DNA from: Escherichia coli
GTDB lineage: Bacteria > Pseudomonadota > Gammaproteobacteria > Enterobacterales > Enterobacteriaceae
Assembly: GCF_030013205.1 (NCBI RefSeq)
Contig: NZ_CP122648.1
DNA: 64,000 bases
Reading direction: 5' to 3' (one strand)
Of the stretch, positions 11,715 to 38,166 are shown in pieces. Both the position numbers and the translations under genes were made by a program. The notes beneath the pieces are model-generated. The model was given only the letters and a program-made list of their open reading frames with translations, searched no databases and had not been told where the DNA came from. The stretch's first letter is position 1. Every line of letters begins with the position of its first letter.

Positions 11715-11721
11715 GGTTTTT

Positions 11722-12297: not shown

Positions 12298-12848
12298 TGC
12301 TGCAGCCAATGAAAAATTCAGCAAGCTGACTGTCAAATATGCGATGTATAGCCGGTATCACCATCCAGTGTACGTTCTATAAGGGGGGCGCTTGGAAAAC
12401 GGGTAGAGTCAAGATGTGGCGCGGTAATTTTACAGGTCAGGCATATCTGTTGCCGCCTCTTTCGATTGGCGGTGCCTTACTGTCCTGACCATAAATCCTG
12501 TTTCCACACCCCGCTCATCGAAGCGGACATGCGCTTCTAACACATCCGGCTCTCGGACAGAATCATGCCTTCGCCCACGGAAACCTCTGCGGGAGCTTCG
12601 GTGCATATTTTCATGGAAGGGGATCACCCAATAACTTCCATCGAGATCGGGTCATAACGGCCAATCCGTGATCGAATAGAGCGGAATACGCACTCTGACG
12701 AACTGCTTACATTTAAACTAATTACAAACTATATAAATCCGCCTTGCTCATTCACAGGGTAGATATATTCTTACTTTTAATTTTATGTGTAATTAACTGA
12801 TGACGAAAAATGAATTGAACTGTAAATGCATATCTAAGTTTTTCATTC

Positions 12849-13574: not shown

Positions 13575-14890
13575 ACTATGTTCTCACTCAGTAAATAGCT
13601 TTCAACCTCATCCAGGCCATCCTTAAATACTTGCTTGAAATTATCAAATTCTGCCGTAGGCAAAGGGCCACTTTTGGCAATCCATGTACCTATTTTCAAA
13701 GTCGATTTCTGCGTGATCGCAATCCTAAGGGCGATCAGGTCGTCCCTGCGATCTATTTCATTCATTACTTTAGCTAAGGACTGGAAAATATATTCAACAT
13801 CTCTACTAATTCCCCCTGCATGAAGTGATGCTCGTCGAATGATACACGGTATACATACCCCACATTGCTGCCCCATTCGTTTCCAATGACTGCAGGATAC
13901 TGTACTTTCCACAATTTTAGATAAGAGCTGCTTATTTGAACATTCGGAGATCATTTTTCCTTTTGTCTTAAACTGATATGGATTGATTATTTGACAAGAA
14001 ATACCGAGCGCATCAAAGATCTTTTGTATGCTCGTAATAAAATGTGGATGTGTTGTTCGTGTGCTCAGCGAACCTATCCGCCGTGGAGTAAGTGGTGCAT
14101 TTAATGAGATAAATCCATTTTCAGGTACGAACAAATCAATCTTTTCTTGTTGAGATATCTCTTGTACGGCACAAGCACCTACGGCCGCAAAGGCAAGAAA
14201 ATTGAGGCTACGAGTTCGCATCGTAATATCAGTCACGCCTTGATAAATGTGTGGGTCAGCATTAATCTCAAAGCGCGAAAATTGGCCACTTAATTTTTCA
14301 GCAATCTGATCTTGACGAGACTTATCCCCCTTATAAGCATGACTAACCAAAAGTGGAGCGCGCCCTGCAGCCAGAAGATCTATTGCACCAATAGCTGAAT
14401 CCAGACCTCCTGAAAATAGGCTGACACAGTCAAGCCCTTTTAGCTTAATCAGACGATGCCTTGAATGCTGGCTATAAGGCTCTGGCGGTGCATAACCATC
14501 GTCACAAAATTCGAAATCCCAGATGTCTCCACTAAGAAAATGCAAAGCACTCTCAAGTTCTTTCTTTAGACTAATCCATCTGGATGGTTCATGAAGGGGG
14601 AGTCGTAACGACAATTGGCGGGTCCAACCATCCTCGGAACTTTCACGCTGAACGAAAGTATCTGCTGCAGTTACTGCTAATGCAACACTCAGAAAATCCA
14701 TGACCTTAGCTGGAAGCTGTACTCCCAAACGTCTGATCCGATCAATCGCAGGATTCCCGATAACAGATATATCTCCGCGCCTCTGACCACTTAATCCATA
14801 TAGCTGAACAGGTAACACTTTCTCACTTGCTGGCGGCAAATGGTGATGTTTATGATGGAAAACTAATTGTGTCACTGGTATGCCTCCCAT
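13571..14890 (-). CDS. qatC: QueC-like PP-loop ATPase (QatC)
   Basis: 439 aa; PP-loop SGGLDS; C-terminal Cys cluster CSHW...CGVCIPC as in QueC. Confidence 0.8.
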   Translation of the reverse strand: MGGIPVTQLVFHHKHHHLPPASEKVLPVQLYGLSGQRRGDISVIGNPAIDRIRRLGVQLPAKVMDFLSVALAVTAADTFVQRESSEDGWTRQLSLRLPLHEPSRWISLKKELESALHFLSGDIWDFEFCDDGYAPPEPYSQHSRHRLIKLKGLDCVSLFSGGLDSAIGAIDLLAAGRAPLLVSHAYKGDKSRQDQIAEKLSGQFSRFEINADPHIYQGVTDITMRTRSLNFLAFAAVGACAVQEISQQEKIDLFVPENGFISLNAPLTPRRIGSLSTRTTHPHFITSIQKIFDALGISCQIINPYQFKTKGKMISECSNKQLLSKIVESTVSCSHWKRMGQQCGVCIPCIIRRASLHAGGISRDVEYIFQSLAKVMNEIDRRDDLIALRIAITQKSTLKIGTWIAKSGPLPTAEFDNFKQVFKDGLDEVESYLLSENIV

Positions 14891-15624
14891 TCTTGCCAGG
14901 CCTCAATAATGGCCTGACGTTCAATTTTTACCATTTGGTTTCGTGTGAACGATCTTATGTTACCGGCAAGTTTTGGTGCCATATGTTTATCAACAACAAC
15001 TTTAATCAATTCCCGGAGTTCAATTTCTGCATGAATTGCCTTTGAAGGTGTATCTGCTTTGTTCCATGCCCTATTAGAATCCATTACCATCTGAAGGAAA
15101 ATACTTTCCGCTAGATAACCAATCATTGTGTCAACAATCACACCATCAGTTATTTTTTGAGGATCGAAAATTTCTACGCCATCAAGAGCCTCCACTAAAG
15201 CATGGTTCATGGCCGCACAGATCTTTTCTGAGTCACCATCCTGTGATGTTAAAGCTTGAGCAATAGTTGATATTGCTATTTCGCATGGAAGGCCTGCCAA
15301 ACTGCCCAAATCGATGCTTGGTTCTCCGGGAGCCGAAGGCATTCCCACTAAAGCCCCAAATAATTCGGCCCCAGCTTGCGTGACACTCCCTAATCGCCGA
15401 GCAGCGTTACTGCTCCCTCCGGAGGCTTTTCGCGCGTAGTGCCCTATGGCTTTTCTGAAATCTGCTCGATTTCCATTTGATACCGCATTTCCCAACGATT
15501 CTCGAAATGGCGCAAACCTCCTTTCTTGCGGCGAGGGTAACGGTTGCTGTGGCTGATCATCAGCCCATGGTGGAACCAGCGGAGAGCCACCTCCTGGACC
15601 TTTACTTGATTGTGATGTTCCCAT
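14872..15624 (-). CDS. qatB: QatB (function unknown)
   Basis: 250 aa Gly/Pro-rich protein between the KAP ATPase and QueC-like genes; start overlaps qatA stop by 1 nt, 3' end overlaps qatC by 19 nt. Confidence 0.65.
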   Translation of the reverse strand: MGTSQSSKGPGGGSPLVPPWADDQPQQPLPSPQERRFAPFRESLGNAVSNGNRADFRKAIGHYARKASGGSSNAARRLGSVTQAGAELFGALVGMPSAPGEPSIDLGSLAGLPCEIAISTIAQALTSQDGDSEKICAAMNHALVEALDGVEIFDPQKITDGVIVDTMIGYLAESIFLQMVMDSNRAWNKADTPSKAIHAEIELRELIKVVVDKHMAPKLAGNIRSFTRNQMVKIERQAIIEAWQEWEAYQ

Positions 15625-17408
15625 TAAGCGTCCTTATTCCATTGTTCATCTTTTAATGCTGCAGTCATCCACGCTGGTCGTTTCATCCCCAACTGTAATT
15701 CCTGTAGATAACGAATTAATATGCTGGCTGCATCTGTTGAGTAGCGGGCCAACAGACATGCGCCGGAAAAGCCTCTGGGCTTACGATCCCAATCTGATAC
15801 CTGCCGTAACTGGTTAATTAAACCTTCCATTACAGGTATTTGCTCCTCACGAGGAAGTGCTTTCAAAAGGTTTTCTGCTGTAGGAGAACTAGTGTTTTTC
15901 AATTCAATTAGTGCATTTAGTACTTCCCGTCCAGATGGCGATAAACCAACCACATATGCACCTATTGGCATAGTTTCTCGGGACAGATATATGGCGGCCC
16001 TTAAGTCAATCCCACCAAGACGAGGTTCAAGTTGGGCCCATTGACTGATGAAAGATTTAGTCGTTGGACTATCAGTCCATGTCTTTGGTGCATCAGTAGG
16101 TATTTGACCGCCATTATCGTCAAGCTGTTTAAGTATCTGGGGAACACCTTGTTCAATATCCACGAGATGATATAAATCAGCGGTGCCATCCACTCCAACA
16201 CAGCGTTCAAAAATTACTAGCTTAGTAATAATTGCTTCATCCAAAGGCATTGCTCGTCGCTTCGCAATTTGAGATCGCATTTTCACAACATTCAACAAGC
16301 GTTTAACGATCCTGGGATTACCATGAATAATTGGAGAGTTGGCTAAAATGGGAGCAATACGGTCAGCACGCGCAAACGCCAGCGCGAGGTTGCTATCATC
16401 CGCTTCACCAGTCATTTTTAAGGCCTCCTGACGTGAGATTGGTTCATCTTTCCAGGATTGCTGTAACGCCTTCTCTAAGCCCTCACGGAGCATAGTTATT
16501 TTTTCGCCTTCTAAGCCATGTTCAATGGCATAAAGCATGAACAGATACGAACGGATCTCACGGACCCCAGCCTTAGGCACCCGAATAGGAACCTGGATTA
16601 GCTTATCCAGATAATCTATTTGATGGCGCTGTGATGCCCCTTTGAAGTAATCAGCCACAGAAGAGCGAATCATGTCCTCATCTGCTGCAATAATAAAGGC
16701 TGTATTAGTCAAGAAAAGGAATAGCCTGATAGCTTCAAGTGTATGGATAGCATTGGCAGGGAGACAGCGGTCTAGGTTATCTATTACCACAATGAGTGGC
16801 TTTCCAAGTTCTTCTAGAATTTCCCCATATTCCTTACGAAAGGCATCAATCTGCTGAGGGGGGCTTTTTTTTGTTTGTGGTTTAATCAAACCACAAGCAG
16901 TTTCTTTACCTTCTTTAGCTATATTGCCTAAAGCCTCATACTCTTCCTGACTCTGGATGCCATCGGTGATATTTCTTAATGCACCAATCCCCCTAGAAAG
17001 CAAACCGCCAGTAGGTAATCCTGCCATTAAAGCTGTACCCTCAGCTAGTAATCCCATAGCTCTAAAACCATCAACTCGACTAAGGAGTCTCTTAGTTTTT
17101 GATATAAGGGTAGAATTACCTTCAGCAGCTTTTGTCAATTCTGTAGCGATGACTTCAAGAAGTGCGGCACGGGCGTCGTCGTACCCCTGATAGAGCCAAG
17201 AGTCAAAATTGATAACAATCCAATCTTTGTCGTCTTGCTCAAGTTTTTGCTCTATCAGTTTTAACAGAGAGGATTTACCTGCCCCCCAGTTTCCAAAAAT
17301 TCCGATAGATACTGGTAACATATCTTTCGTGGTAAGTACATCCACGGCTAACTGAGATACTTCACCAAAATTTAGGTAGTCTTCTGATGACTCTTTGTCT
17401 GACCACAT
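15624..17408 (-). CDS. qatA: KAP-family P-loop NTPase (QatA)
   Basis: 594 aa; Walker A GNWGAGKSS near N-terminus. Confidence 0.8.
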   Translation of the reverse strand: MWSDKESSEDYLNFGEVSQLAVDVLTTKDMLPVSIGIFGNWGAGKSSLLKLIEQKLEQDDKDWIVINFDSWLYQGYDDARAALLEVIATELTKAAEGNSTLISKTKRLLSRVDGFRAMGLLAEGTALMAGLPTGGLLSRGIGALRNITDGIQSQEEYEALGNIAKEGKETACGLIKPQTKKSPPQQIDAFRKEYGEILEELGKPLIVVIDNLDRCLPANAIHTLEAIRLFLFLTNTAFIIAADEDMIRSSVADYFKGASQRHQIDYLDKLIQVPIRVPKAGVREIRSYLFMLYAIEHGLEGEKITMLREGLEKALQQSWKDEPISRQEALKMTGEADDSNLALAFARADRIAPILANSPIIHGNPRIVKRLLNVVKMRSQIAKRRAMPLDEAIITKLVIFERCVGVDGTADLYHLVDIEQGVPQILKQLDDNGGQIPTDAPKTWTDSPTTKSFISQWAQLEPRLGGIDLRAAIYLSRETMPIGAYVVGLSPSGREVLNALIELKNTSSPTAENLLKALPREEQIPVMEGLINQLRQVSDWDRKPRGFSGACLLARYSTDAASILIRYLQELQLGMKRPAWMTAALKDEQWNKDA

Positions 17409-17539: not shown

Positions 17540-18742
17540 CTATTTTTTAAAGAATGAAATAAGCTTTCTTATCCCAGTCCATATTTTCCTATCAGAATCC
17601 GAAGGGTTAAATTCGCTCTTGTCAAAATCAGCAACCTCAGCAACCTCAGCAACCTCAGCAACCTCAGCAACCTCAGCAACCTCAGCAACCTCAGCAACCT
17701 CAGCAACCTCAGCAACCTCAGCAACCTCAGCAACCTCAGCAACCTCAGCAACCTCAGCAAGGTTTATTCTATTTTGATGAGCTGTCAAATGTTCTTTGTT
17801 AATTTCATCTCTAATTAGCTGTTCTTTTTCTATGCTGTAGTTTTTGTCATTATAAGTCACATCAAAATCATCTAAGAAAACGATATAAATCAATTTAAAA
17901 AAACTAGTCTTAAATAAAAAACTATCGCACTCATCAGGAAAACCAAAAAAGAAAACATTAAGATATTTGGTTGCTTTGCGCTTGTCTTTTAGTCCATTAT
18001 AATACTTATTTGCTTCTGCTCTTTGTTTTTCATACTCACTACAGAAAAAACTCTTTTTACTTTCATCCCATTCTGAAGCATCAATTTCAAGTTTATATGC
18101 TTGTTTGGTACCTTTCTTTCTGGCTAAAAAAGTAAGGTAATATCTATTCGAATTTATCTCCAGCCGTATATTAGATTGAATTTTACCAAAATAAATTGCT
18201 GGCTTATTATATCTAATTCCTTCTTTATAGATGATTAGTTGAAAAGTATCTTTATAAGTTCTAACTCCATAAGGGGGAATTGATAATGGTTCATAGAGAT
18301 TATCTCCATTAATGTAGTAGTCTACTACCGGTTTGATGCTTGAAGATGACACAGGGTGTACTTTACCTCCCAAATCTTTTTCATCATCTCGCGTCTGTTT
18401 GATAATTCTTCTGCCAGAAGAGTCGTAATTTCTTTCAGACACATCAAGTTTCAGAAGAGATATAGCTAATGCCGGTGGTGAATTATGCTTTTTATTATTC
18501 TTTGAGTTACACTTATTTTTACTCTTAGGATCATGAATCTTACATCCCGGCCTATGAGTCTCTTTATATCGAAAGTATGATTGATTTAAATTTATTTCTT
18601 TGAAGCTACATGGAGTAGCGGGTATCCTACATTTGTCATACGGGCATTCAAAAGTGGTTGTTCGTATATAAAGATCATCCATTTCCCGAAGATCATGACC
18701 ATGAACAATTTCACCACTAACAGAATCTCTTGCTATTGTCAC
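17540..18742 (-). CDS. hypothetical protein with N-terminal Cys cluster and C-terminal (Ala-Glu-Val)n repeat
   Basis: 400 aa; GTG start preceded by perfect SD AAGGAG at 5-nt spacing; C33/C38/C45/C67 with flanking His; AT-rich; co-directional with qatA 131 bp downstream. Confidence 0.6.
   Translation of the reverse strand: MTIARDSVSGEIVHGHDLREMDDLYIRTTTFECPYDKCRIPATPCSFKEINLNQSYFRYKETHRPGCKIHDPKSKNKCNSKNNKKHNSPPALAISLLKLDVSERNYDSSGRRIIKQTRDDEKDLGGKVHPVSSSSIKPVVDYYINGDNLYEPLSIPPYGVRTYKDTFQLIIYKEGIRYNKPAIYFGKIQSNIRLEINSNRYYLTFLARKKGTKQAYKLEIDASEWDESKKSFFCSEYEKQRAEANKYYNGLKDKRKATKYLNVFFFGFPDECDSFLFKTSFFKLIYIVFLDDFDVTYNDKNYSIEKEQLIRDEINKEHLTAHQNRINLAEVAEVAEVAEVAEVAEVAEVAEVAEVAEVAEVAEVAEVAEVADFDKSEFNPSDSDRKIWTGIRKLISFFKK
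17628..17760. repeat. perfect 9-bp tandem repeat (gcaacctca), about 14.8 copies, in-frame within the 400-aa CDS
   Basis: Direct reading of sequence; encodes the AEV repeat on the minus strand. Confidence 0.97.
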
Positions 18743-19190: not shown

Positions 19191-19950
19191 GTATTTTCCC
19201 CGCTGTTCATCCAGACGGTTCAGGCGCTCAGCCATCCGCGGCCTGAAGAGATAAAGGCGATAATAAAACAGACATCAGTGTCAGTGACAGCAAGGACGGA
19301 CAGCGCCGGAATAAGCTTTGTTCCTCAGCCCTCACGTTCCTGCAACATAATTTTCCAGCCAAACGAAAAACCTTTTATTCATGCCATACCAATAATCGCC
19401 AGCCTCCTGGCGATGCCTCCCACCATGTTTTGCAGTGGTACGCTACCGCCCTTCCGGTATTTACCCGCATCAACCGGTACCAGAATGCTGAGTAACAAAC
19501 CAGCTCAGAACTGACTGAATTTTGATCATTATAGAATAATGATCTGAACTGCAGCAATATAACAGATTTATCGATCGATATAACGCAAATGAACAGATCT
19601 TTATTCTGTCATATATCGCAAAAACAGCACATTACAAAATTTATAACCATAATTAATGGAAAAGTGCAGAAAATTATTCCACTGAATGCTTTTAATACAG
19701 TTAGTTAGCTAAAAAAATAGCAATTTTTGATTTCAGTCATTGAAAATTGCAATGCGTGACGATTCAACAGCATTTAAGTGAGTTTCAGGATATGGGAAGG
19801 ACATGAAAGGAGGAGCGCAATAAAATATACAGGAAGAAGGGGAAAATGTTTCGTAAAAACAGAAAATTAACAGCGCACATCAGGAAACTCAGTCTCCTGA
19901 TTCAGTGCTACCACATGAAAATTTAGTTAACTGTTACCGTACTAAAATTT

Positions 19951-25712: not shown

Positions 25713-27218
25713 TTATGACCGAAAGAATTGCTCTTTCCATTCTCTCAGTTTCTGGCTGTGATAGCCCTGCTCGTAACACGCCTTCAACTCAGAGAACGTG
25801 ATATTGTTTACTCTGGAAAGCAGGACATAGGTTGTTTTACCTTCTCTCTCAAAGGAAAGCTTTAACTGAGACGCAAGAATGTTCAACAGTGCGTTCAGTT
25901 TTTTTCTGTTTCTGAAACGCCCCGGGCCACACTGGAGAATATAATTTTTCCTGACACGAGGCGGGCATTCTCCGCGGCACTCCTCAATGAGCCAGTCGAG
26001 CAGCTCCTGTGCGTCCTGCAGCTGCAGTTCAGATTCATCAGGTAACGCAAATAATTTTTTATATTCATCTGTGTACCACGAACTTATTACGACAGCAGAC
26101 GTCATGATATCGGCAGTAATTTTCCCTTCCCCCTGACTGAAATACTGCAATAATGCAGCAATTCTCGCAATGTTTTCTGTTTTTTTTGAAACATGTCCCC
26201 GAAACGCACTTAACGGACCGGAAGGAGATAAATCCTGCTCAAGAACATTATAGTGCTCAATAAATATTTTTTGCGCTTCAGGCGAAAAATGCAGACAATA
26301 CCGTTCATCCTTACTGGATTTTTCAATACTGGCTCTGGCCAGTTCCATTAATCGTTCATGAAATGCCGTTAACGATCCTCCCGGGGTCACAGCTCCGTTA
26401 ATAAAGCGTTTCCCCTGCGTGCTTGCAGGTTTACTGATAAGGCAACGGGCAAGAAAACCACTGTCTCTGGCAACAGCACCTTTTCGCTCCATATATCGGT
26501 CAAAAAGACCGGGTTGCACCATGAGGGATAACGTCATTCTGGCATTTTCAATCATCTGTTCGGGTTCATTCTTTCTGTCCACAGACAACACTGAGCCATC
26601 CCACATTTTGTTAATAAAAGGCAACTCAGACAGGGTATATCCATCAAATATAATACCAGCTTCATCTGACATAATACCAACTGAACGCCATTTACCACAA
26701 AGCTGATTCTTAATTGCCGCAGTCGTGGCATCATTAACAATGAATTTATACCTCACAGGTTCTTCCGCACTGTTTTTCTGAAGTACTTCCAGTTGTCTGA
26801 GGGTTTCTGACTCATCCGCGCCTTTGCGGAGTTCTTTATTCAGTTTTGACAACAATGCTTTTTTCTGAGCCTTTAAAAGCTCTTCCTTGTTTTTCCAGAC
26901 AGCCAGTTCACTTTTGTATCTGGAATATAACTGCATCTCCTGCTGGTACAGGGGCTTCATTAATAATTTGTCCACTGCGGTTTTTCGTTCTCCGGACTCG
27001 GCAAGCGTCAGGAAAAAAAGAGAAACCGGCCCCCGCAGTGTATTCAGTCTGCAGACATCAATCAGATTCTGGCAGACAAGTGAAACAGCGCCCAGTGCAG
27101 ATGCTGCCACAAGCCCAAGGGGAGCCTGCGTAATTTGCTGAGCTTCAATAACGGCATCACGAATGAGTGGAGGCAGCGAACTCAGGGGGAACTCATCACA
27201 AGGCTGACCGAATGACAT
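25713..27218 (-). CDS. DUF3987-like (YfjI-family) island protein
   Basis: 501 aa from ATG 27218 with SD tgaggt (track ORF starts at upstream TTG); follows alpA as in CP4-57-like elements. Confidence 0.5.
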   Translation of the reverse strand: MSFGQPCDEFPLSSLPPLIRDAVIEAQQITQAPLGLVAASALGAVSLVCQNLIDVCRLNTLRGPVSLFFLTLAESGERKTAVDKLLMKPLYQQEMQLYSRYKSELAVWKNKEELLKAQKKALLSKLNKELRKGADESETLRQLEVLQKNSAEEPVRYKFIVNDATTAAIKNQLCGKWRSVGIMSDEAGIIFDGYTLSELPFINKMWDGSVLSVDRKNEPEQMIENARMTLSLMVQPGLFDRYMERKGAVARDSGFLARCLISKPASTQGKRFINGAVTPGGSLTAFHERLMELARASIEKSSKDERYCLHFSPEAQKIFIEHYNVLEQDLSPSGPLSAFRGHVSKKTENIARIAALLQYFSQGEGKITADIMTSAVVISSWYTDEYKKLFALPDESELQLQDAQELLDWLIEECRGECPPRVRKNYILQCGPGRFRNRKKLNALLNILASQLKLSFEREGKTTYVLLSRVNNITFSELKACYEQGYHSQKLREWKEQFFRS

Positions 27219-28402
27219 AGTAACCTCACTACATACAGATATAAAAGCACTGCAATTTTGGCTATTAATAGCAAAAATAGCAGTCAAATCAATATGAGGT
27301 AAAAATTTTTGTTGATTTAATGGTTAAATAATAACCACAGTGTGTTTTGCTGCTGAAGAAAGACAAAATGAATCTGTGTGTCCCCTCCTTCCCTTCGGAG
27401 CATATCTACTGTTCAAATTTTACACAATCACGTACAAACAAAAAGCATCATCCCGGGTATTGCAGATACCGGTTTCCTGCCGGGAAGAATCATAAACAGA
27501 AAACCCGGAATAACACCTTCAGAAAGCGACTTCCCTCCTGAAGAATAATAAAGAAGACGATAATTCCTGTCCTGAATTCGATATTTCATGGATATGACGC
27601 CATTTTTATAAATGACAAAAAAGCATTTAATGCTGACACATCAGGAAAAACAAAATAATACCCCCCTGCCGATACAGATAAAACACACCAATTTTCTTTG
27701 AATGCTCCCGCATAATTGTCAGACAGTGATAAAAATGGGTTATGACAATCTTTCTTCAACAAAAACCTGTCTTCTGTTTTTTTACATCAGCATCCTGCTT
27801 AAATTAAACGTAAACGAGCACAGCATTTCTGTACCAGAACTAAAAATCAGCTATTATTCAGCACCCTCAATCAATAAAATCTCAACAATATTATCCGGAA
27901 CAGCATGGTACCTCTATCAAAGGTTTTTAACAGGACAATTAACATTACTGAACAGCCTTCCTGCAGAACCACTGCAAATATAAAACCAGGGCGCAGGATA
28001 AATAATCACACCCTGAAAAATGCTGTCACACAAAAAAAAATTAATCACTGCACATAATCCGGAAGCGAAATACCAAACAACCCGGTATCAACAGGTATCA
28101 TTGCGTGCGCCACTCTTATAAAAAACACACAGCAGAAGTAAGATAATTATAAACGTAATTTTAATATCTCTCTGCCCCCCACAAAAAAACACTGAAAAAA
28201 AAATACTCACATCAGTAAACATGAGCACACCTGATAATCAGGCTGTCAGAGGAATGATATTTCCCTTTTACGGGATAGTCAGCCCGCCATTGAACAATGT
28301 TCAAATCGATTCAAAATAATTTCAGACAGATATTATCGTTGTGAGTCCCCCGCCACCTTTCCGGTACGCGGGATTTTGTCTTTTTTCACCGGGAATACAT
28401 GT

Positions 28403-29275
28403 ATGAATCCGTCTGATGCCATTGAGGCAATTGAAAAACCGCTCTCCTCCCTGCCTTATTCGCTTTCCCGTCACATCCTGGAACATCTGCGTAAACTCAC
28501 CAGCCACGAACCCATGATTGGCATTATGGGGAAAAGCGGGGCCGGTAAATCCTCACTCTGTAATGCGCTGTTTCAGGGGGAGGTCACCCCGGTCAGTGAT
28601 GTTCACGCCGGCACCCGGGAAGTGCGGCGCTTCCGTCTGAGTGGCCACGGTCACAGCATGATTATCACTGACCTGCCCGGGGTGGGCGAGAGCCGGGACA
28701 GGGATGCAGAGTATGAAGCCCTGTACCGTGACATTCTGCCTGAACTTGACCTGGTACTGTGGCTGATTAAAGCCGATGACCGTGCCCTGTCTGTGGATGA
28801 GTATTTCTGGCGACACATCCTGCACCGGGGACATCAGCGGGTACTGTTTGTGGTGACGCAGGCCGATAAAACGGAGCCCTGCCATGAATGGGATATGGCC
28901 GGTATTCAGCCTTCTCCCGCACAGGCACAGAACATTCGCGAAAAAACGGAGGCGGTATTCCGTCTGTTCCGGCCCGTACATCCGGTTGTGGCCGTATCGG
29001 CCCGCACCGGCTGGGAACTGGATACGCTGGTCAGCGCGCTCATGACAGCACTTCCCGACCATGCCGCCAGTCCCCTGATGACCCGCCTGCAGGACGAGCT
29101 GTGCACGGAATCTGTCCGGGGGCAGGCCCGTGAACAGTTTACCGGTGCGGTGGACCGGATATTTGACACGGCGGAGAGCGTCTGTGTTGCCTCTGTTGCA
29201 CGCACGGTTCTGCGTGCCGTCCGTGACACGGTGGTCTCTGTTGCCCGCGCGGTATGGAACTGGATTTTCTTCTGA
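28403..29275 (+). CDS. yeeP: YeeP/YkfA-family GTPase
   Basis: P-loop GKSGAGKSS; placed immediately upstream of the antigen 43 gene as in CP4-44. Confidence 0.7.
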   Translation: MNPSDAIEAIEKPLSSLPYSLSRHILEHLRKLTSHEPMIGIMGKSGAGKSSLCNALFQGEVTPVSDVHAGTREVRRFRLSGHGHSMIITDLPGVGESRDRDAEYEALYRDILPELDLVLWLIKADDRALSVDEYFWRHILHRGHQRVLFVVTQADKTEPCHEWDMAGIQPSPAQAQNIREKTEAVFRLFRPVHPVVAVSARTGWELDTLVSALMTALPDHAASPLMTRLQDELCTESVRGQAREQFTGAVDRIFDTAESVCVASVARTVLRAVRDTVVSVARAVWNWIFF

Positions 29276-29389
29276 ACAGTCTGCCAGGGAAATGCCTGAT
29301 TACATTACGTTAACCAACTGAAAACATGACACAAACACCTCATACTCCTCCTGTTTCTCTTGCATGACTGCCTCGTCATTAATAGAATA

Positions 29390-29432
29390 AAACGATCGAT
29401 AAAACAGGTATCGATCGCCATCATCGATCGTT
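29390..29432. promoter_or_regulatory. three clustered GATC sites upstream of Ag43 (Dam/OxyR phase-variation switch)
   Basis: GATC at 29394, 29413 and 29426 within 36 bp, about 220 bp upstream of the Ag43 start. Confidence 0.6.
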
Positions 29433-29646
29433 TATAGTGGTTAATGACCTGCGAAAAGGCAGTTGATTCTCTTCATCATGCAGAACGGAATTGCACACAA
29501 CGGACTGATGCTTCTCTGGCGGATGAGAGAGGGGAAGCATTTATGTCCGAGAAAAACCACTTTATCTGACCATGCTGTTTTGTACCTGCCGGTATCCACA
29601 TTTGTGGGTACCGGCTTTTTTATTCACCCTCTGTAAGGAAAAGCTG

Positions 29647-32493
29647 ATGAAACGACATCTGAACACCAGCTACAGGCTGGTATGGAATCACATTACGGGC
29701 ACCCTGGTGGTGGCTTCCGAACTGGCCCGCTCACGGGGGAAACGTACTGGCGTGGCGCTGGCGCTGTCTCTTGCCACCGCCACTTCAGTCCCGGCCCTGG
29801 CTGCTGACAGTGTTGTACAGGCAGGGGAAATCGTGAACGGCGGGACACTGGTAAATCATGACAACCAGATTGTCTTCGGTACGACCAACGGAATGACCAT
29901 CAGTACCGGGCTGGAGTATGGGCCGGATAACGAGGCCAATACCGGCGGGCAATGGGTACAGGATGGCGGCACAGCCAGTAATACCACCATCAGCAACGGC
30001 GGGCTCCAGTTTGTAGGTGCCGGGGGAAAGGCTACAGACACAATAATCAATGAAGGAGGCGGACAAAGTCTGAAGGGACTGGCACTGAACACCACGCTGA
30101 ATGGTGGCGAGCAGTGGATGCATGAAGGTGCGATAGCCACAGGAACCGTCATTAATGATAAGGGCTGGCAGGTCGTCAAACCCGGCGCAGTGGCAACAGA
30201 CACCGTTGTGAATACCGGCGCAGAAGGAGGACCGGATGCAGAAAATGGTGATACCGGGCAGTTTGTTCGCGGAAATGCCGTACGTACCACTATCAATAAA
30301 AATGGTCGTCAGATTGTGGTAGCCACCGGAGTGGCAAACACCACGGTGGTTTATGCCGGCGGCGACCAGACGGTACATGGCCACGCACTGGATACCACGC
30401 TGAATGGCGGTAACCAGTATGTGCACAACGGCGGTACAACGTCTGACACTGTTGTGAACAGTGACGGCTGGCAGATTATCAAGGAAGGTGGTCTGGCGGA
30501 TTTCACCACCGTTAACCAGAAAGGCAAACTGCAGGTGAACGCCGGTGGTACAGCCACGAATGTCACCCTGAAGCAGGGCGGCGCACTGGTCACCAGTACT
30601 GCTGCAACGGTTCTTGGCAGCAACCGTCTGGGGAATTTCACGGTGGAAAACGGTAAGGCTGACGGCGTTGTTCTGGAGTCCGGCGGTCGCCTGGATGTAC
30701 TGGAGGGCCATTCAGCGCAGAATACCCTGGTGGATGACGGCGGTACCCTGGCAGTGTCTGCCGGTGGTAAGGCAACAGATGTCACCATGACATCCGGTGG
30801 TGCCCTGATTGCAGACAGTGGTGCCACTGTTGAGGGGACCAATGCCAGCGGTAAGTTCAGTATTGATGGCATATCCGGTCAGGCCAGCGGCCTGCTGCTG
30901 GAAAATGGCGGCAGCTTTACGGTTAATGCCGGGGGACAGGCCGGTAACACCACTGTCGGATATCGTGGAACACTGACGCTGGCTGCCGGGGGAAGTCTGA
31001 GTGGCAGAACACAGCTCAGTAAAGGTGCCAGCATGGTACTGAATGGCGATGTGGTCAGTACCGGCGATATTGTTAACGCAGGGGAGATTCGCTTTGATAA
31101 TCAGACAACACCGGATGCCGCGCTGAGCCGTGCTGTTGCAAAAAGTAACTCCCCGGTAACGTTCCATAAACTGACCACCAGTAACCTCACCGGCCAGGGC
31201 GGCACCATCAATATGCGTGTCAGCCTTGATGGCAGTAATGCCTCAGACCAGCTGGTAATTAATGGTGGTCAGGCAACCGGCAAAACCTGGCTTGCGTTCA
31301 CAAATGTCGGAAACAGCAATCTCGGGGTGGCAACCTCCGGACAGGGTATCAGGGTTGTGGATGCACAGAATGGCGCCACCACAGAAGAAGGTGCGTTTGC
31401 CCTGAGTCGCCCGCTTCAGGCCGGCGCCTTTAACTACACCCTGAACCGTGACAGCGATGAAGACTGGTACCTGCGCAGTGAAAATACTTATCGTGCTGAA
31501 GTCCCCCTGTATGCCTCCATGCTGACACAGGCAATGGACTATGACCGGATTCTGGCAGGCTCCCGCAGCCATCAGACCGGTGTAAGCGGTGAAAATAACA
31601 GCGTCCGTCTCAGCATTCAGGGCGGTCATCTCGGGCACGATAACAACGGTGGTATTGCCCGTGGGGCCACGCCGGAAAGCAGCGGCAGCTATGGCTTCGT
31701 CCGTCTGGAGGGTGACCTGCTCAGAACAGAGGTTGCCGGTATGTCTCTGACGACAGGGGTGTATGGTGCTGCAGGCCATTCTTCCGTTGAAGTTAAGGAT
31801 GATGACGGCTCCCGCGCCGGCACGGTCCGGGATGATGCCGGCAGCCTGGGCGGATACCTGAATCTGGTACACACATCCTCCGGCCTGTGGGCTGACATTG
31901 TGGCACAGGGAACCCGCCACAGCATGAAAGCGTCATCGGACAATAACGACTTCCGCGCCCGGGGCTGGGGCTGGCTGGGCTCACTGGAAACCGGTCTGCC
32001 CTTCAGTATCACTGACAATCTGATGCTGGAGCCACAACTGCAGTACACCTGGCAGGGACTTTCCCTGGATGACGGCCAGGATAACGCCGGTTATGTGAAG
32101 TTCGGGCATGGCAGTGCACAACATGTGCGTGCCGGCTTCCGTCTGGGCAGCCACAACGATATGACCTTTGGTGAAGGCACCTCATCCCGTGACACCCTGC
32201 GCGACAGTGCAAAACACAGTGTGCGTGAACTGCCGGTGAACTGGTGGGTACAGCCTTCTGTTATCCGCACCTTCAGTTCCCGGGGTGACATGAGCATGGG
32301 GACAGCCGCTGCCGGCAGTAACATGACGTTATCACCGTCACAGAATGGCACGTCACTGGACCTGCAGGCCGGACTGGAAGCCCGTGTCCGGGAAAATATC
32401 ACCCTGGGGGTACAGGCCGGTTATGCCCACAGCGTCAGCGGCAGCAGTGCTGAAGGTTATAACGGTCAGGCCACGCTGAATGTGACTTTCTGA
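29647..32493 (+). CDS. flu: antigen 43 self-associating autotransporter
   Basis: 949 aa from ATG 29647 (MKRHLNTSYRLVWNH...); long Gly/Thr-rich beta-helix passenger and C-terminal beta-barrel. Confidence 0.9.
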   Translation: MKRHLNTSYRLVWNHITGTLVVASELARSRGKRTGVALALSLATATSVPALAADSVVQAGEIVNGGTLVNHDNQIVFGTTNGMTISTGLEYGPDNEANTGGQWVQDGGTASNTTISNGGLQFVGAGGKATDTIINEGGGQSLKGLALNTTLNGGEQWMHEGAIATGTVINDKGWQVVKPGAVATDTVVNTGAEGGPDAENGDTGQFVRGNAVRTTINKNGRQIVVATGVANTTVVYAGGDQTVHGHALDTTLNGGNQYVHNGGTTSDTVVNSDGWQIIKEGGLADFTTVNQKGKLQVNAGGTATNVTLKQGGALVTSTAATVLGSNRLGNFTVENGKADGVVLESGGRLDVLEGHSAQNTLVDDGGTLAVSAGGKATDVTMTSGGALIADSGATVEGTNASGKFSIDGISGQASGLLLENGGSFTVNAGGQAGNTTVGYRGTLTLAAGGSLSGRTQLSKGASMVLNGDVVSTGDIVNAGEIRFDNQTTPDAALSRAVAKSNSPVTFHKLTTSNLTGQGGTINMRVSLDGSNASDQLVINGGQATGKTWLAFTNVGNSNLGVATSGQGIRVVDAQNGATTEEGAFALSRPLQAGAFNYTLNRDSDEDWYLRSENTYRAEVPLYASMLTQAMDYDRILAGSRSHQTGVSGENNSVRLSIQGGHLGHDNNGGIARGATPESSGSYGFVRLEGDLLRTEVAGMSLTTGVYGAAGHSSVEVKDDDGSRAGTVRDDAGSLGGYLNLVHTSSGLWADIVAQGTRHSMKASSDNNDFRARGWGWLGSLETGLPFSITDNLMLEPQLQYTWQGLSLDDGQDNAGYVKFGHGSAQHVRAGFRLGSHNDMTFGEGTSSRDTLRDSAKHSVRELPVNWWVQPSVIRTFSSRGDMSMGTAAAGSNMTLSPSQNGTSLDLQAGLEARVRENITLGVQAGYAHSVSGSSAEGYNGQATLNVTF

Positions 32494-32820
32494 TAATCAG
32501 GTCACTCCCCTTCAGGCCCCGGCCATCATGACCGGGGCTTTTTACTTTCAGGGAGCAACAGATATGCCTGGTTGTACATCACGTTTATTGCCCGAAGGCC
32601 CTTTTGCTGCCAAATGGCATCTGAATCGATCACAGTTTGACCGGTTATTACCCGATCCCGATGGGGTTATTGGGTGATCTCCTTCCATAAAAATACGCAG
32701 CTCGCCAGTGAAGGGCTTCTCAGACAATAAACGTCATTCATTTCATCGGTCAGGCCGCGTCTTCTCCGGGAGACGCGGCTTTTTCATTTATACCGCTAAC
32801 TCATTCATAAGGAGCAAATC

Positions 32821-33639
32821 ATGCGATTAGCAAGTCGTTTTGGTCATGTAAACCAGATACGCCGTGACCGTCCGCTGACACATGAAGAACTGATGCACTA
32901 TGTACCCAGTATTTTTGGGGAAGATCGGCATACCTCCCGCAGTGAACGCTATGCGTACATTCCCACCATCACCGTACTGGAAAGCCTGCAGCGGGAAGGT
33001 TTTCAGCCATTCTTCGCCTGCCAGACCCGCGTGCGCGATCCGGGCCGCCGGGGATACACCAGACACATGCTGCGTCTGCGGCGGGCCGGGGAGATAACCG
33101 GACAACATGTCCCTGAAATTATTCTGCTCAACTCCCATGACGGTACCTCCAGCTACCAGATGCTGCCGGGTTACTTCAGATTCGTCTGCCAGAACGGCTG
33201 CGTCTGCGGTCAGTCTCTGGGGGAAGTCCGTGTGCCCCACCGGGGAAATGTGGTGGACAGAGTCATTGAAGGGGCTTACGAGGTAGTGGGCGTTTTTGAC
33301 CGGATTGAGGAAAAGCGTGATGCCATGCAGTCTCTGGTCCTGCCGCCACCGGCACGTCAGGCGCTGGCACAGGCGGCACTGACTTACCGTTATGGTGACG
33401 AACATCAGCCGGTCACCACCGCCGACATTCTGACGCCACGACGCAGGGAGGATTACGGTAAGGACCTGTGGAGTGCATATCAGACCATCCAGGAGAATAT
33501 GCTGAAAGGCGGGATTTCCGGTCGCAGCGCTAAAGGAAAACGTATCCACACCCGTGCCATTCACAGCATCGACACGGACATTAGGCTCAACCGCGCATTG
33601 TGGGTGATGGCAGAAACGCTGCTGGAGAGCCTGCGCTGA
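32821..33639 (+). CDS. DUF945/YfjQ-family protein
   Basis: 272 aa, SD aaggag; CP4-type island protein. Confidence 0.65.
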   Translation: MRLASRFGHVNQIRRDRPLTHEELMHYVPSIFGEDRHTSRSERYAYIPTITVLESLQREGFQPFFACQTRVRDPGRRGYTRHMLRLRRAGEITGQHVPEIILLNSHDGTSSYQMLPGYFRFVCQNGCVCGQSLGEVRVPHRGNVVDRVIEGAYEVVGVFDRIEEKRDAMQSLVLPPPARQALAQAALTYRYGDEHQPVTTADILTPRRREDYGKDLWSAYQTIQENMLKGGISGRSAKGKRIHTRAIHSIDTDIRLNRALWVMAETLLESLR

Positions 33640-33730
33640 TGCTGTTTCCCTGAAAGTGCAGCCCTGACTCACGTCTGTACCAGTCCCCAGGCATTCTTCC
33701 ATTCATTTGCTTTTTATAAGGAATAATCTC

Positions 33731-34216
33731 ATGACAACCTCTTCGCATAATTCCACCACACCTTCTGTTTCCGTAACCGCTGCATCAGGGAATAACCAGT
33801 CTCAACTGGTTGCCACTCCCGTCCCTGATGAACAGCGCATCAGTTTCTGGCCGCAGCACTTTGGCCTCATTCCACAGTGGGTGACCCTGGAGCCCCGTAT
33901 CTTCGGCTGGATGGACCGTCTGTGTGAAGACTACTGCGGTGGTATCTGGAATCTGTATACCCTGAACAACGGCGGGGCATTTATGGCACCCGAACCGGAT
34001 GACGATGATGACGAAACATGGGTACTGTTCAATGCCATGAACGGTAACCGCGCTGAAATGAGCCCGGAAGCCGCCGGTATTGCCGCCTGTCTGATGACGT
34101 ACAGCCATCATGCCTGTCGTACGGAGTGTTATGCCATGACGGTCCATTATTACCGGCTGCGGGATTACGCCCTGCAGCATCCTGAATGCAGCGCCATTAT
34201 GCGCATCATCGACTGA
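33731..34216 (+). CDS. antirestriction protein (YfjX/KlcA-like)
   Basis: 161 aa from ATG with SD aagga; acidic DDDDDE patch. Confidence 0.65.
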   Translation: MTTSSHNSTTPSVSVTAASGNNQSQLVATPVPDEQRISFWPQHFGLIPQWVTLEPRIFGWMDRLCEDYCGGIWNLYTLNNGGAFMAPEPDDDDDETWVLFNAMNGNRAEMSPEAAGIAACLMTYSHHACRTECYAMTVHYYRLRDYALQHPECSAIMRIID

Positions 34217-34230
34217 GCCGGAGAAGCACA

Positions 34231-34707
34231 ATGCAACAACTTTCCTTTCTGCCCGGAGAGATGACAACCAGAGAGCGCAGTCTCATTCTGCGGGCCCTGA
34301 AAACCCTGGACCGCCATCTTCATGAACCCGGTGTGGCCTTCACCTCCACGCATGCGGCACGGGAATGGCTGATTCTGAACATGGCAGGACTGGAGCGGGA
34401 AGAGTTCCGGGTACTGTATCTGAACAACCAGAATCAGCTGATTGCGGGTGAAACCCTCTTCACCGGCACCATCAACCGCACGGAGGTCCATCCCCGGGAA
34501 GTGATTAAACGTGCCCTGTACCACAATGCCGCTGCCGTGATACTGGCACACAACCACCCGTCCGGTGAAGTCACTCCCAGTAAGGCAGACCGGCTTATTA
34601 CGGAACGTCTGGTACAGGCACTGGCCATGGTGGATATCCGGGTGCCGGACCATCTGATAGTCGGTGGCAGCCAGGTTTTCTCCTTTGCCGAACACGGTCT
34701 GCTTTAA
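34231..34707 (+). CDS. RadC-like JAB-domain protein (YeeS/YfjY family)
   Basis: 158 aa; JAMM motif HNHPSGE. Confidence 0.8.
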   Translation: MQQLSFLPGEMTTRERSLILRALKTLDRHLHEPGVAFTSTHAAREWLILNMAGLEREEFRVLYLNNQNQLIAGETLFTGTINRTEVHPREVIKRALYHNAAAVILAHNHPSGEVTPSKADRLITERLVQALAMVDIRVPDHLIVGGSQVFSFAEHGLL

Positions 34708-34775
34708 CCCGTCACCGTCACAACCACATCACACCTGTTTTCACTTTTATCTTCTGTCTTCAGAGGTATCCCACC

Positions 34776-34997
34776 ATGAAAATTATCACCCGTGGTGAAG
34801 CCATGCGCATTCACCGTCAGCATCCGGCATCCCGTCTTTTTCCGTTCTGCACCGGTAAGTACCGCTGGCACGGCAGCACTGAGGCATATACCGGTCGTGA
34901 AGTGCAGGATATTCCCGGTGTGCTGGCCGTGTTTGCTGAACGCCGTAAGGACAGTTTTGGCCCGTATGTCCGGCTGATGAGTGTAACCCTGAACTGA
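34776..34997 (+). CDS. YeeT/DUF987-family protein
   Basis: 73 aa, SD gagg. Confidence 0.6.
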   Translation: MKIITRGEAMRIHRQHPASRLFPFCTGKYRWHGSTEAYTGREVQDIPGVLAVFAERRKDSFGPYVRLMSVTLN

Positions 34998-35015
34998 GTC
35001 AGGAAGGGAATTCTG

Positions 35016-35660
35016 ATGAGCAGAATTATCACCACCACCGTGTATACGCTGGATGAACTTTCCTGCCCGGCACGGGAAAAAGCCCGCGACGGGTACCGTC
35101 AGCATCATGCTGACAGCAACTGGTATGAAAACGTGTATGAAGACTTCAGGGAGGTCTGTGACATTTTCGGGATTAACCTCCGCCAGCGTGTTATCCGGCT
35201 CAGCAGTGGCAGGTTTATGGAAGAGCCGTGCATCTGGTTCAGCGGATTCTGCAGCCAGGGGGACGGAGCCTGTTTTGAAGGACGCTGGCACTGGCAGTCA
35301 GCAACAGCCAGGAGAATCCGGGAGTATGCCCCACAGGACCGTGAAATTCATCGTATCGCGGATGCCCTGCAGTCGGTACAGAAGCGTAACTTCTGGCAGT
35401 TACAGGCTGAAATCAGTCACCGGGGACGTTACTGCCATCCGTACAGCATGGATATCACCGTCACCCGGAACAGTCCGACTGGTCAGGTAATGACAACCGA
35501 TGCGGAAGCCGCTGTCAGCGAAGCCCTGCGCGACCTGGCCTTCTGGTTGTACCGTCAGCTGGAAAACGAGTACGACTGGCTGACCTCAGACGCCGCTGTG
35601 GATGAGGCCCTTCTCATCAACGAATACACCTTCACCGAAGCCGGTCTGCGCGCCGGCTGA
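35016..35660 (+). CDS. hypothetical protein (Cys/Trp-rich)
   Basis: 214 aa, SD ggaaggg; sits between yeeT-like gene and cbeA. Confidence 0.5.
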   Translation: MSRIITTTVYTLDELSCPAREKARDGYRQHHADSNWYENVYEDFREVCDIFGINLRQRVIRLSSGRFMEEPCIWFSGFCSQGDGACFEGRWHWQSATARRIREYAPQDREIHRIADALQSVQKRNFWQLQAEISHRGRYCHPYSMDITVTRNSPTGQVMTTDAEAAVSEALRDLAFWLYRQLENEYDWLTSDAAVDEALLINEYTFTEAGLRAG

Positions 35661-35709
35661 CTCGTCATCGTTAAACTATCATTCACCGATTTTCTGTGAG
35701 GATTTTATC

Positions 35710-36078
35710 GTGTCAGACACACTCCATGAAACAAATTATCCCGACGACAACAACGACCGCTCCTGGTGGGGGCTACCCTGCACCGTGACGCCCTGTTTCA
35801 GGGCACGTCTGGTGCAGGAAGGGAACCGGTTGCATTACCTTGCAGACCGTGCCGGTATCAGAGGCCGGTTCAGCGACGCGGATGCGTACCATCTGGACCA
35901 GGCCTTTCCGCTGCTGATGAAACAACTGGAACTCATGCTCACCAGCGGTGAACTCAGTCCCCGCCATCAGCATACCGTCACGCTGTATGCAAAAGGGCTG
36001 ACCTGCGAAGCCGACACCCTCGGCAGTTGTGGCTACGTTTATATGGCTGTTTATCCGACGCCCGAAACGAAAAAGTAA
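35710..36078 (+). CDS. cbeA: CbeA/YeeU-family type IV antitoxin
   Basis: 122 aa from GTG 35710 with SD gagga (MSDTLHETNYPDD...WWGLPCTVTPCF...). Confidence 0.8.
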   Translation: MSDTLHETNYPDDNNDRSWWGLPCTVTPCFRARLVQEGNRLHYLADRAGIRGRFSDADAYHLDQAFPLLMKQLELMLTSGELSPRHQHTVTLYAKGLTCEADTLGSCGYVYMAVYPTPETKK

Positions 36079-36167
36079 ATAATCAGAATAACCTTCTGCT
36101 CCGGCCAGGTGCTTTCACCACACCACTTTCCCATTTCTCATCTCTGCATATCAGGAAAATCTTCAGT

Positions 36168-36545
36168 ATGAAAACATTACCTGTATTACCCGGGCAGGCG
36201 GCCGGTTTACGCCCGTCTCCGGTTGAAATCTGGCAGACACTGCTTACCAGACTGCTGGACCAGCATTACGGCCTCACGCTGAATGACACGCCGTTTGCCG
36301 ATGAACGTGTGATTGAGCAGCATATTGAGGCAGGCATATCACTGTGTGATGCGGTGAACTTTCTCGTGGAAAAATACGCGCTGGTGCGTACCGACAAGCC
36401 GGGATTCAACGCCTGTACCCACTCTCAGTTAATAAACAGCATCGATATCCTCCGGGCCCGCCGGGCAACAGGCCTGATGACCCGCGACAATTACAGAACG
36501 GTGAACAATATCACCCGGGGTAAACATTCGGAGGCGAAACGATGA
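36168..36545 (+). CDS. cbtA: CbtA/YeeV-family toxin
   Basis: 125 aa (MKTLPVLPGQAAGLRPSPVEIWQ...) directly downstream of the antitoxin. Confidence 0.8.
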   Translation: MKTLPVLPGQAAGLRPSPVEIWQTLLTRLLDQHYGLTLNDTPFADERVIEQHIEAGISLCDAVNFLVEKYALVRTDKPGFNACTHSQLINSIDILRARRATGLMTRDNYRTVNNITRGKHSEAKR

Positions 36546-37030
36546 AACTGACCCTGACACTGGAAGCCGACAGTATTAATGTGCAGGCACTGAACATGGA
36601 GCGAATTGTTGTTGACGTCGATGGTATTGAGCTCGCTGAACTGATTAATAAGGTCGCTGAAAACGGTTATTCACTCCGCGTGGTGGATGCTCCCGAACAG
36701 CAGACAACGGATTCTCCACCATCGTTTACGGCCCTTACCGGCATACGCTGCAGTACCGCACATATCACGGAAAAGGATAACGCCTGGCTGTACTCGCTGT
36801 CACACCAGACCAGTGACTTCGGTGAATCAGAATGGATTCATTTCACAGGTAGCGGATATCTGTTACGTACCGATGCGTGGTCATATCCGGTTCTGCGGCT
36901 TAAACGCCTGGGGCTGTCAAAAACGTTCCGTCGTCTGGTTGTCACACTCATCCAACGTTATGGCGTCAGTCTCATTCATCTGGATGCCAGCGCTGAATGT
37001 CTGCCGGACCTGCCCACTTTCGACTGGTAA
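36542..37030 (+). CDS. YeeW-like protein
   Basis: 162 aa, start overlaps cbtA stop (ATGA). Confidence 0.55.
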   Translation: MKLTLTLEADSINVQALNMERIVVDVDGIELAELINKVAENGYSLRVVDAPEQQTTDSPPSFTALTGIRCSTAHITEKDNAWLYSLSHQTSDFGESEWIHFTGSGYLLRTDAWSYPVLRLKRLGLSKTFRRLVVTLIQRYGVSLIHLDASAECLPDLPTFDW

Positions 37031-37031
37031 C

Positions 37032-37239
37032 CAGGAACAACATGAAATCATTAACCACAGAAACCGCACTGGATATTCTGATTGCGTGGCTACAAGACAA
37101 TATCGACTGCGAATCGGGAATTATCTTTGACAACGATGAGGATAGAACGGATTCGGCAGCACTGTTGCCCTGTATCGAACAGGCCAGAGAGGATGTCCGT
37201 ACCCTGCGTCAGCTGCAGTTTCTGCAACAGAACCGGTGA
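37032..37239 (+). CDS. small island protein (YpjJ-like)
   Basis: 68 aa from ATG with SD agga. Confidence 0.4.
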
Positions 37240-37323
37240 GTCTTACTCACCAGACTTCATTCCACTGACGCCAGCCTGAATACGGCTGGCGTTTTCGTTT
37301 ATCTGCAAAAAGGAATATCGATT

Positions 37324-38166
37324 ATGTCTGAAATCACAGCCTCTCGTCCGGAAGTGGTCAACGGGCATACGGACGTTATCTGCTCAACCAGTATCCGCCA
37401 CATTCTGGCTGTACGAAAGAGTACATTGCTGCAAATCGACACACTTATCCGGCAACTGGCTGAAATATCAGCAATGACAGAAAGTATTGGAGGTAAAACG
37501 GCTCTGGACTGGGCCATGAAACAGGATTTTCGCTGCGGTTGCTGGCTGATGGAGAAACCGGAAACCGCAATGAAAGCCATCACACGCAATCTTGATCGCG
37601 AACTCTGGCGTGATCTGATGCAACGTTCCGGGTTGCTGAGTCTGATGGATGCGCAGACCCGGGACACATGGTACAGGTCACTGGAATATGATAATTTTCC
37701 GGAAATCAGCGAAGCGAACATTCTGAGCACATTTGAACAACTGCACCAGAACAAAGATGAAGTGTTTGAACGGGGAGTGATCAACGTCTTCAAAGGGCTG
37801 AGCTGGGATTACAAAACCAACTCACCCTGTAAATTTGGCAGTAAAATTATCGTCAACAATCTGGTGAGGTGGGACCAGTGGGGATTTCATCTTATCAGTG
37901 GAATGCAGGCAGATCGCCTGGCTGACCTGGAAAGAATGTTGCATCTGCTCAGCGGTAAACCGATCCCCGACAACCGGGGGAATATCACCATTAATCTGGA
38001 TGACCACATACAGTCCGTTCAGGGTAAAGGACGCTATGAAGATGAGATGTTCATCATTAAATACTTTAAGAAGGGATCTGCACACATCACTTTCAAAAGG
38101 CTGGAGCTGATTGACAGAATTAACGATATAATAGCTAGGCACTTTCCTTCTGTGCTCTCAGCCTGA
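37324..38166 (+). CDS. DUF4942-like island protein
   Basis: 280 aa, SD aaagga; family assignment from memory. Confidence 0.5.
   Translation: MSEITASRPEVVNGHTDVICSTSIRHILAVRKSTLLQIDTLIRQLAEISAMTESIGGKTALDWAMKQDFRCGCWLMEKPETAMKAITRNLDRELWRDLMQRSGLLSLMDAQTRDTWYRSLEYDNFPEISEANILSTFEQLHQNKDEVFERGVINVFKGLSWDYKTNSPCKFGSKIIVNNLVRWDQWGFHLISGMQADRLADLERMLHLLSGKPIPDNRGNITINLDDHIQSVQGKGRYEDEMFIIKYFKKGSAHITFKRLELIDRINDIIARHFPSVLSA

Follow-up and report, generated by a model that had tools for sequence, protein, structure and literature searches.

The closest described relative of the locus analysed here is the Dam/OxyR switch of agn43, the antigen 43 (Ag43) gene of Escherichia coli K-12. When the operator is unmethylated, OxyR binds it, represses transcription and keeps the GATC sites protected from Dam, which gives the OFF state, and methylated GATCs exclude OxyR, which gives the ON state; the hemimethylated period that follows replication renews the competition between Dam and OxyR, and switching occurs at ~10^-3 per generation (PMC13337833, PMC2909390, PMC3764049, PMC4872104). 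Four methylome papers (PMC4659465, PMC6602927, PMC4267614 and PMC4490391) mention agn43 only by citation and contain no per-site data on its non-K-12 alleles.

GATC pairs 13 bp apart lie inside OxyR half-sites in the gtr system of Salmonella, whose coordinates also imply a spacing of 32 bp between half-site centres (PMC2909390), the distance described as canonical for reduced OxyR in the opvAB paper. In opvAB itself, half-sites with a 7/10 match to the consensus are functional, and single-base changes in a half-site abolish phase variation.

Here we compare with these systems a cluster of three GATC sites from a stretch of 64,000 nucleotides of E. coli DNA (hereafter, the window). From its sequence and that of its alleles, the cluster is very probably the functional operator of a Dam/OxyR epigenetic phase-variation switch, serving an allelic antigen 43 gene.

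Three GATC sites ahead of an Ag43 gene

GATC occurs at 29394-29397, 29413-29416 and 29426-29429 (GATC-I, -II and -III), spanning 36 bp inside positions 29390-29432, which read aaacGATCgataaaacaggtatcGATCgccatcatcGATCgtt. This confirmed the initial annotation, which had reported three GATC sites within 36 bp ahead of an Ag43 gene; the cluster lies 218 nt upstream of the start of this gene at 29647. The features of the locus are as follows.

28403-29275, plus strand: YeeP-like GTPase gene, conserved upstream neighbour of the switch (profile matches and allele loci)
29360-29365, plus strand: predicted -35 hexamer TTGCAT, 3/6 match, with a 17-nt spacer to the -10 hexamer (allele alignment)
29382-29396, no strand: predicted OxyR half-site 1, ATAGAATAAAACGAT, 8/10, overlapping the -10 hexamer and GATC-I (in-silico consensus score; identical in K-12)
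29383-29388, plus strand: predicted -10 hexamer TAGAAT, identical in K-12 agn43 and 10/11 other alleles (TAGAAC in ET220)
29394-29397, no strand: GATC-I, Dam target, its G being the predicted transcription start (direct read of the sequence)
29394-29646, plus strand: predicted Ag43 mRNA 5' leader, ~253 nt, an IS102/isrC-type structured RNA (Rfam match and fold score)
29413-29416, no strand: GATC-II, Dam target in the left arm of the predicted OxyR half-site 2 (direct read and allele comparison)
29414-29428, no strand: predicted OxyR half-site 2, ATCGCCATCATCGAT, 7/10, with C for the consensus T at position 6 (in-silico consensus score)
29426-29429, no strand: GATC-III, Dam target in the right arm of the predicted OxyR half-site 2 (direct read)
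29588-29621, plus strand: intrinsic-terminator-like hairpin (29588-29615) with a 12-bp stem and 8 GC pairs, followed by TTTTTT (terminator scan)
29647-32493, plus strand: intact gene for an Ag43/Cah family autotransporter adhesin of 948 aa (NF033177 equivalog)

The count of such clusters is unremarkable on its own. When the 224 GATC sites of the window were placed at random, an average of 1.26 clusters of three sites arose within 36 bp, with at least one in 70% of the placements, and the window as a whole is slightly poor in GATC (224 observed vs 249.5 expected). It is the context that gives the trio its significance. On its two sides there is no GATC for 3020 nt and 3202 nt, and the probability of a trio this compact is ~0.0014 when the local density, 8 sites in 11.2 kb, is used. 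Additionally, its offsets of 0/19/32 are unique among the GATC trios of the window, and the 13-bp GATC pair that forms part of it is the only one there. The other trios, at 12622, 13715, 25407, 43504, 48954 and 59757, reached OxyR-like scores of 9-11/20 and were treated as chance occurrences; the one at 13715-13753 spans 39 bp within the coding sequence of qatC.

The product of the downstream gene matched NF033177 with 1979.5 bits (cut-off 1200) over residues 1-948 of 948, and contains the Pfam domains ESPR, AIDA, AC_1 (autochaperone) and Autotransporter (beta-barrel). It is 73% identical to Ag43 from K-12, which has 1039 aa, the passenger domain being 91 residues shorter here, and differs by a single residue in length from the 949-aa product of cah from O157:H7.

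The gene is carried by an island of ~31 kb that extends from a tRNA-Phe gene (pheU, 7121-7196) and an integrase gene (7394-8656) as far as a point just before cadC (38915). Over 21 kb, the window is 100% identical to the chromosome of the porcine E. coli strain ETEC4079. There, the Ag43 gene is preceded on the island by defence genes (Qat among them), hha and the GTPase gene, and the backbone after it consists of DUF932, antirestriction, RadC, DUF987, YeeU/CbtA and DUF5983 genes. The genome of ETEC4079 contains two copies of the switch region, and this second copy, together with the location on a tRNA-Phe island next to cadC, makes the term island copy, used for the Ag43 gene in the initial annotation, an accurate one. 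The genes dam and oxyR belong to the E. coli core, and neither is among the genes of the 64-kb window.

The left part of the island (10386-17408) harbours genes for defence against phages. The ETEC4079 annotation lists a nucleotide-binding protein together with a SLATT-domain protein (10386-12297) and, on the minus strand, a Qat system that includes a KAP-family NTPase (12849-17408); hha is further right. The window and ETEC4079 differ by 63 nt in length, within a hypothetical gene at 17540-18742.

Conservation of the GATC sites among agn43 alleles

We compared the locus with the agn43 regulatory region of K-12 W3110, TAGAATAAAACGATCaatatctattttatcGATCgtttatatcGATC. The sequence between the GATC sites is largely different from that of K-12, so that megablast gave no alignment and MAFFT was out of register, pairing GATC-III of the window with GATC-II of K-12. 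The MAFFT alignment was therefore rejected for an ungapped register anchored on the -10 hexamer. From this hexamer through GATC-I (TAGAAT, AAAAC and GATC; TAGAATAAAACGATC), the window and K-12 are identical, the -10 hexamer lying immediately upstream of GATC-I, and the GATC offsets of 0/19/32 are common to the window, K-12 agn43 and ten further alleles. The sample of further alleles had 85-93% core identity and included cah from O157:H7; one stray contig, which has the same offsets, was added to it.

Across the 48-nt operator of 12 alleles, all 12 GATC columns were invariant and 15 of the remaining 36 columns were variable (Fisher p=0.009; p=0.088 for the same contrast without K-12). The most variable stretch of the operator was the 5 nt between GATC-II and GATC-III, which read CCATC here, TTTAT in O157 cah and TTACT or TTGCT in others. 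O157:H7 cah and the common non-K-12 agn43 alleles have the same type of switch (GATCGATAAAACAGGTATCGATCG...) and of leader as the window. This common non-K-12 type occurs in ~3450 of 5426 complete E. coli genomes, with a core that is 85-93% identical; the exact variant of the window is rare, being found in 23-26 of the 5426 genomes, mostly from pigs.

A scan of 100,044 species genomes with the exact pattern AAACGATCN{14,15}GATCGN7CGATC yielded 101 matches, nearly all of them chance occurrences in unrelated phyla, and consequently tells little about taxonomic spread. The one true agn43 switch among them was on an E. coli-like contig from a 'Collinsella' metagenome-assembled genome (JAIJJM010000733.1, 'MAG: Collinsella sp.', 1560 bp). 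The switch and the leader on this contig are typical of agn43 from E. coli, and its assignment to Collinsella is probably a binning contamination. An unrelated three-GATC motif (AAACGATCAATT...ATTGATCG...CGATCAAT) was a recurrent match in Pantoea, Erwinia, Buttiauxella, Leminorella and their relatives, and may be a conserved Dam-related site.

A predicted OxyR site over the promoter

We scored the window against the 15-nt OxyR half-site consensus, ATAGnTnnnAnCTAT, and searched for composite sites of two half-sites with a 17-nt gap (maximum score, 20). The composite at 29382-29428 scored 15/20, the single best in 64 kb, with half-site centres 32 bp apart; the 8/10 score of its half-site 1 is reached at only 24 positions in 64 kb. 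In this register, the K-12 operator reached 16/20, and the alleles all had scores of 15-16/20. A score of at least 15/20 was found somewhere in 32% of mononucleotide-shuffled windows, so that the match is convincing only because it is located at the site predicted beforehand. A compact OxyR consensus, with a 7-nt gap, reached 12/20 at the site, which is background (window maximum, 13), and was replaced by the arrangement with the 17-nt gap.

Within half-site 2, the alleles vary only at positions 5-9, four of which are N positions of the consensus. This restriction of the variation mostly to free positions supports the half-site register, which we infer from the sequence. Between 29300 and 29500, only two half-sites score at least 7/10, and these two extend across the -10 hexamer and the start site. 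The trio appears to lie within a single predicted OxyR site that overlaps the promoter and the transcription start, as in the agn43 switch.

The C at 29419, position 6 of half-site 2, leaves this half-site with one match fewer than in most alleles (7/10 vs 8/10), and the -35 hexamer matches the consensus in only 3/6 positions. Because both elements are weaker, some weight has to be given to a decayed or biased derivative of the agn43 switch, with expression effectively locked, probably ON or else constitutively low. The loss of phase variation from single-base half-site changes in opvAB, and the rarity of the exact variant among the 5426 genomes, point in the same direction. However, this allele has kept its three GATCs and their spacing, the two recognition arms, the leader and the open reading frame intact, the C at position 6 is shared by allele A0 34/86, and 7/10 half-sites are functional in opvAB; we consider a locked derivative improbable. 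For a switch that operates, the difference from most alleles at this consensus position of half-site 2 could still shift the switching rates.

Promoter and leader RNA

The predicted -35 hexamer is TTGTCC in K-12 and TTGCGT or TTGCAT in other alleles. A generic promoter scan did not call a promoter at the site, because the -35 hexamer has only a 3/6 match. Transcription of agn43 in K-12 is said, from the work of Wallecha and colleagues in 2002, to start at the G of GATC-I; by homology, we take 29394 to be the +1 position here.

The predicted leader matched Rfam family RF00124 (IS102) at 29392-29628 with 68.2 bits (gathering score, 46), as compared with 252.6 bits for the leader of K-12 agn43, and its fold z-score of -4.05 was well beyond the shuffled controls. 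The stem arms of the terminator-like hairpin, its T-run and the ribosome-binding site are invariant among K-12, O157 cah and E2865, with one variable base in the loop.

The scan for structures also flagged an 8-bp hairpin formed by the CGATCG palindromes at the predicted 5' end of the leader. The trio might accordingly serve mainly as an RNA or DNA hairpin, as a target for SeqA or as a means for methylation to act directly on promoter strength, with OxyR being irrelevant; in K-12, SeqA reportedly binds this region and changes the switching bias (PMC13337833 and the opvAB paper). Nevertheless, an 8-bp hairpin is the automatic outcome of the repeated CGATCG, and it is imperfect in K-12 and ET220, where there are no compensatory changes. 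Sequestration of the site is ascribed to OxyR and not to SeqA (PMC13337833), and the geometry of the half-sites fits OxyR. These observations make a role of the trio outside OxyR control highly improbable.

A functionless chance grouping, for which the ~1.3 clusters expected per 64 kb and the 39-bp trio inside qatC could be invoked, is refuted by the comparative data (identical spacing in 12 alleles and invariant GATC columns amid variable neighbours), in line with the low probability at the local density and the best composite OxyR site of the window, and retains practically no likelihood.

GATC depletion around the switch

The 11.2 kb from 26375 to 37593 contain 8 GATC sites vs ~40 expected (P ~7e-10). 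The Ag43 gene itself contains none (7.6-10.5 expected), and there is none between 33041 and 37593 (18 expected). Likewise, K-12 agn43, cah from O157 EC4115 and agn43 from E2865 contain 0 GATC each vs ~8 expected, and the backbone genes (the GTPase gene, and those from DUF932 to DUF5983) contain 0-2 vs 12-18 expected. Counts are normal in alternative cargo, that is, in a dynamin operon and a yeeR-like gene. With both the Ag43 genes and the backbone almost free of GATC, the switch is left as the only Dam target for ~3 kb on each side. This isolation might have been selected to set the kinetics of Dam vs OxyR, or might be a mere relic of GATC avoidance in mobile DNA.

Downstream of the Ag43 terminator and upstream of the DUF932 gene, there is a second trio, at 32628, 32654 and 32676 (offsets 0/26/48). 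It occupies 32628-32679, within a 37-codon open reading frame (32564-32677; MPGCTSRLLPEGPF...) whose stop codon is overlapped by the last of the three GATCs. This 0/26/48 trio is conserved in the island of E. coli MP1 (segment L014; 15149, 15175 and 15197), and no OxyR-like site was found at it (9/20). Elsewhere, the AT-rich intergenic region at 19524-19599 contains four GATCs within 76 bp, with a best OxyR-like score of 13/20, and includes an inverted repeat with one GATC per arm (TGATCATTATAGAATAATGATC) as well as the palindrome CGATCGAT.

A related cassette before a dynamin-like operon

The island slot of agn43 can also hold an agn43-like cassette, which comes after the GTPase gene and before an operon with dynamin-family and RdcB-family genes and a gene for a patatin-like phospholipase. 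We examined five copies, from E. coli MP1, O157:H7 FRIK2455, ST131, EC590 and AVS0747; in MP1 (NZ_CP139039.1), the region ahead of the operon is at about 4067354-4067520. The cassette has a TAGAAT -10 hexamer and three GATCs at 0/18/31, GATC-III being lost in one of the five copies (EC590). For MP1 and O157:H7 FRIK2455, the copies that we scored, each of the two predicted OxyR half-sites reached 8/10, and the gap between them was 16 nt. The cassette region occurs in 2463 of the 5426 E. coli genomes (~45%). By comparison, the dynamin operon of O157:H7 that directly follows cah has no cassette of its own. A search of one literature collection found no paper linking dynamin, OxyR and GATC in E. 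coli.

The three-GATC/OxyR operator always follows a YeeP-like GTPase gene. Judging from the comparative data, many E. coli strains appear to use the same cassette, located in GATC-depleted DNA, for the control of another cargo operon. A bolder proposal is that the operator is a portable part of the island backbone and not private to agn43, that the dynamin operon is phase-variable and that the isolation of the GATCs was possibly selected; we put this forward tentatively, regarding it as rather unlikely in its entirety. If true, the dynamin-family operon would be an unreported Dam/OxyR phase-variable system.

Proposed operation of the switch

The reading that we favour is a Dam/OxyR switch in working order. 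We infer from the K-12 literature that OxyR would bind the window allele in a methylation-sensitive manner, that transcription would start as it does in K-12 and that the gene would switch. Transcription from a sigma-70 promoter (TTGCAT, 17 nt, TAGAAT) would begin at the G of GATC-I or close to it. A tetramer of OxyR in the reduced form would occupy 29382-29396 and 29414-29428, so that the three GATCs would be covered together with the -10 hexamer and the start site. With the GATCs unmethylated, bound OxyR would block RNA polymerase and shield the GATCs from Dam, resulting in an inherited OFF state. If Dam were to methylate first, in the hemimethylated period after replication, OxyR would be excluded and transcription would proceed, as an inherited ON state. 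Transcripts would then cross the IS102/isrC-type leader and the terminator hairpin before reaching the Ag43 start codon.

For annotation, such a switch would mean that the island Ag43 adhesin is to be expected in only a part of the population, switching independently of the second copy in the genome. This would affect the reading of aggregation, biofilm and expression data from porcine ETEC-like strains.

Comparison with known switches

The locus resembles pap-type switches, controlled by Lrp and Dam, in the use of competition between Dam and a DNA-binding regulator for heritable ON and OFF states (PMC2909390). These switches, however, rely on two GATC boxes 102 bp apart, on Lrp and on a PapI-like cofactor (PMC2909390). 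The GATCs of the window are spaced by 19 and 13 bp and, within 3 kb, there is no further GATC; with the nearest other site 3 kb away, the pap layout does not fit.

The likeness to Salmonella gtr (from P22) and opvAB is closer, as they share OxyR half-sites that contain GATCs, centres 32 bp apart and, in gtr, GATC pairs 13 bp apart. Nonetheless, gtr and opvAB contain three or four half-sites upstream of the promoter, which are occupied alternately, and OxyR acts on them both as activator and as repressor. This layout was not found between 29300 and 29500, where the two half-sites scoring at least 7/10 sit on the -10 hexamer and the start; from such a position, OxyR could only repress.

The match to the known Ag43 Dam/OxyR switch and the likely ON/OFF control, as proposed in the initial annotation, are supported by homology, every sequence-level feature of the characterised agn43 switch being present. 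Half-site 1 is identical to that of K-12, and half-site 2 has the same arms (ATCG...CGAT). Both leaders belong to the IS102/isrC type and have the same terminator stem and ribosome-binding site, and in both cases there is a YeeP-like GTPase gene upstream and an Ag43 family gene downstream. Conversely, the two differ in the 15 nt between GATC-I and GATC-II and in the 5-nt core between GATC-II and GATC-III, in half-site 2 (7/10 here vs 8/10 in K-12) and in the -35 hexamer (TTGCAT vs TTGTCC). The leader of the window is ~31 nt longer than that of K-12 and diverged in the middle (68 vs 253 bits with the Rfam model), and the gene resides in the pheU island instead of CP4-44. The locus is, then, an allele of a switch well known from E. 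coli textbooks, and its identification is a correct but ordinary result.
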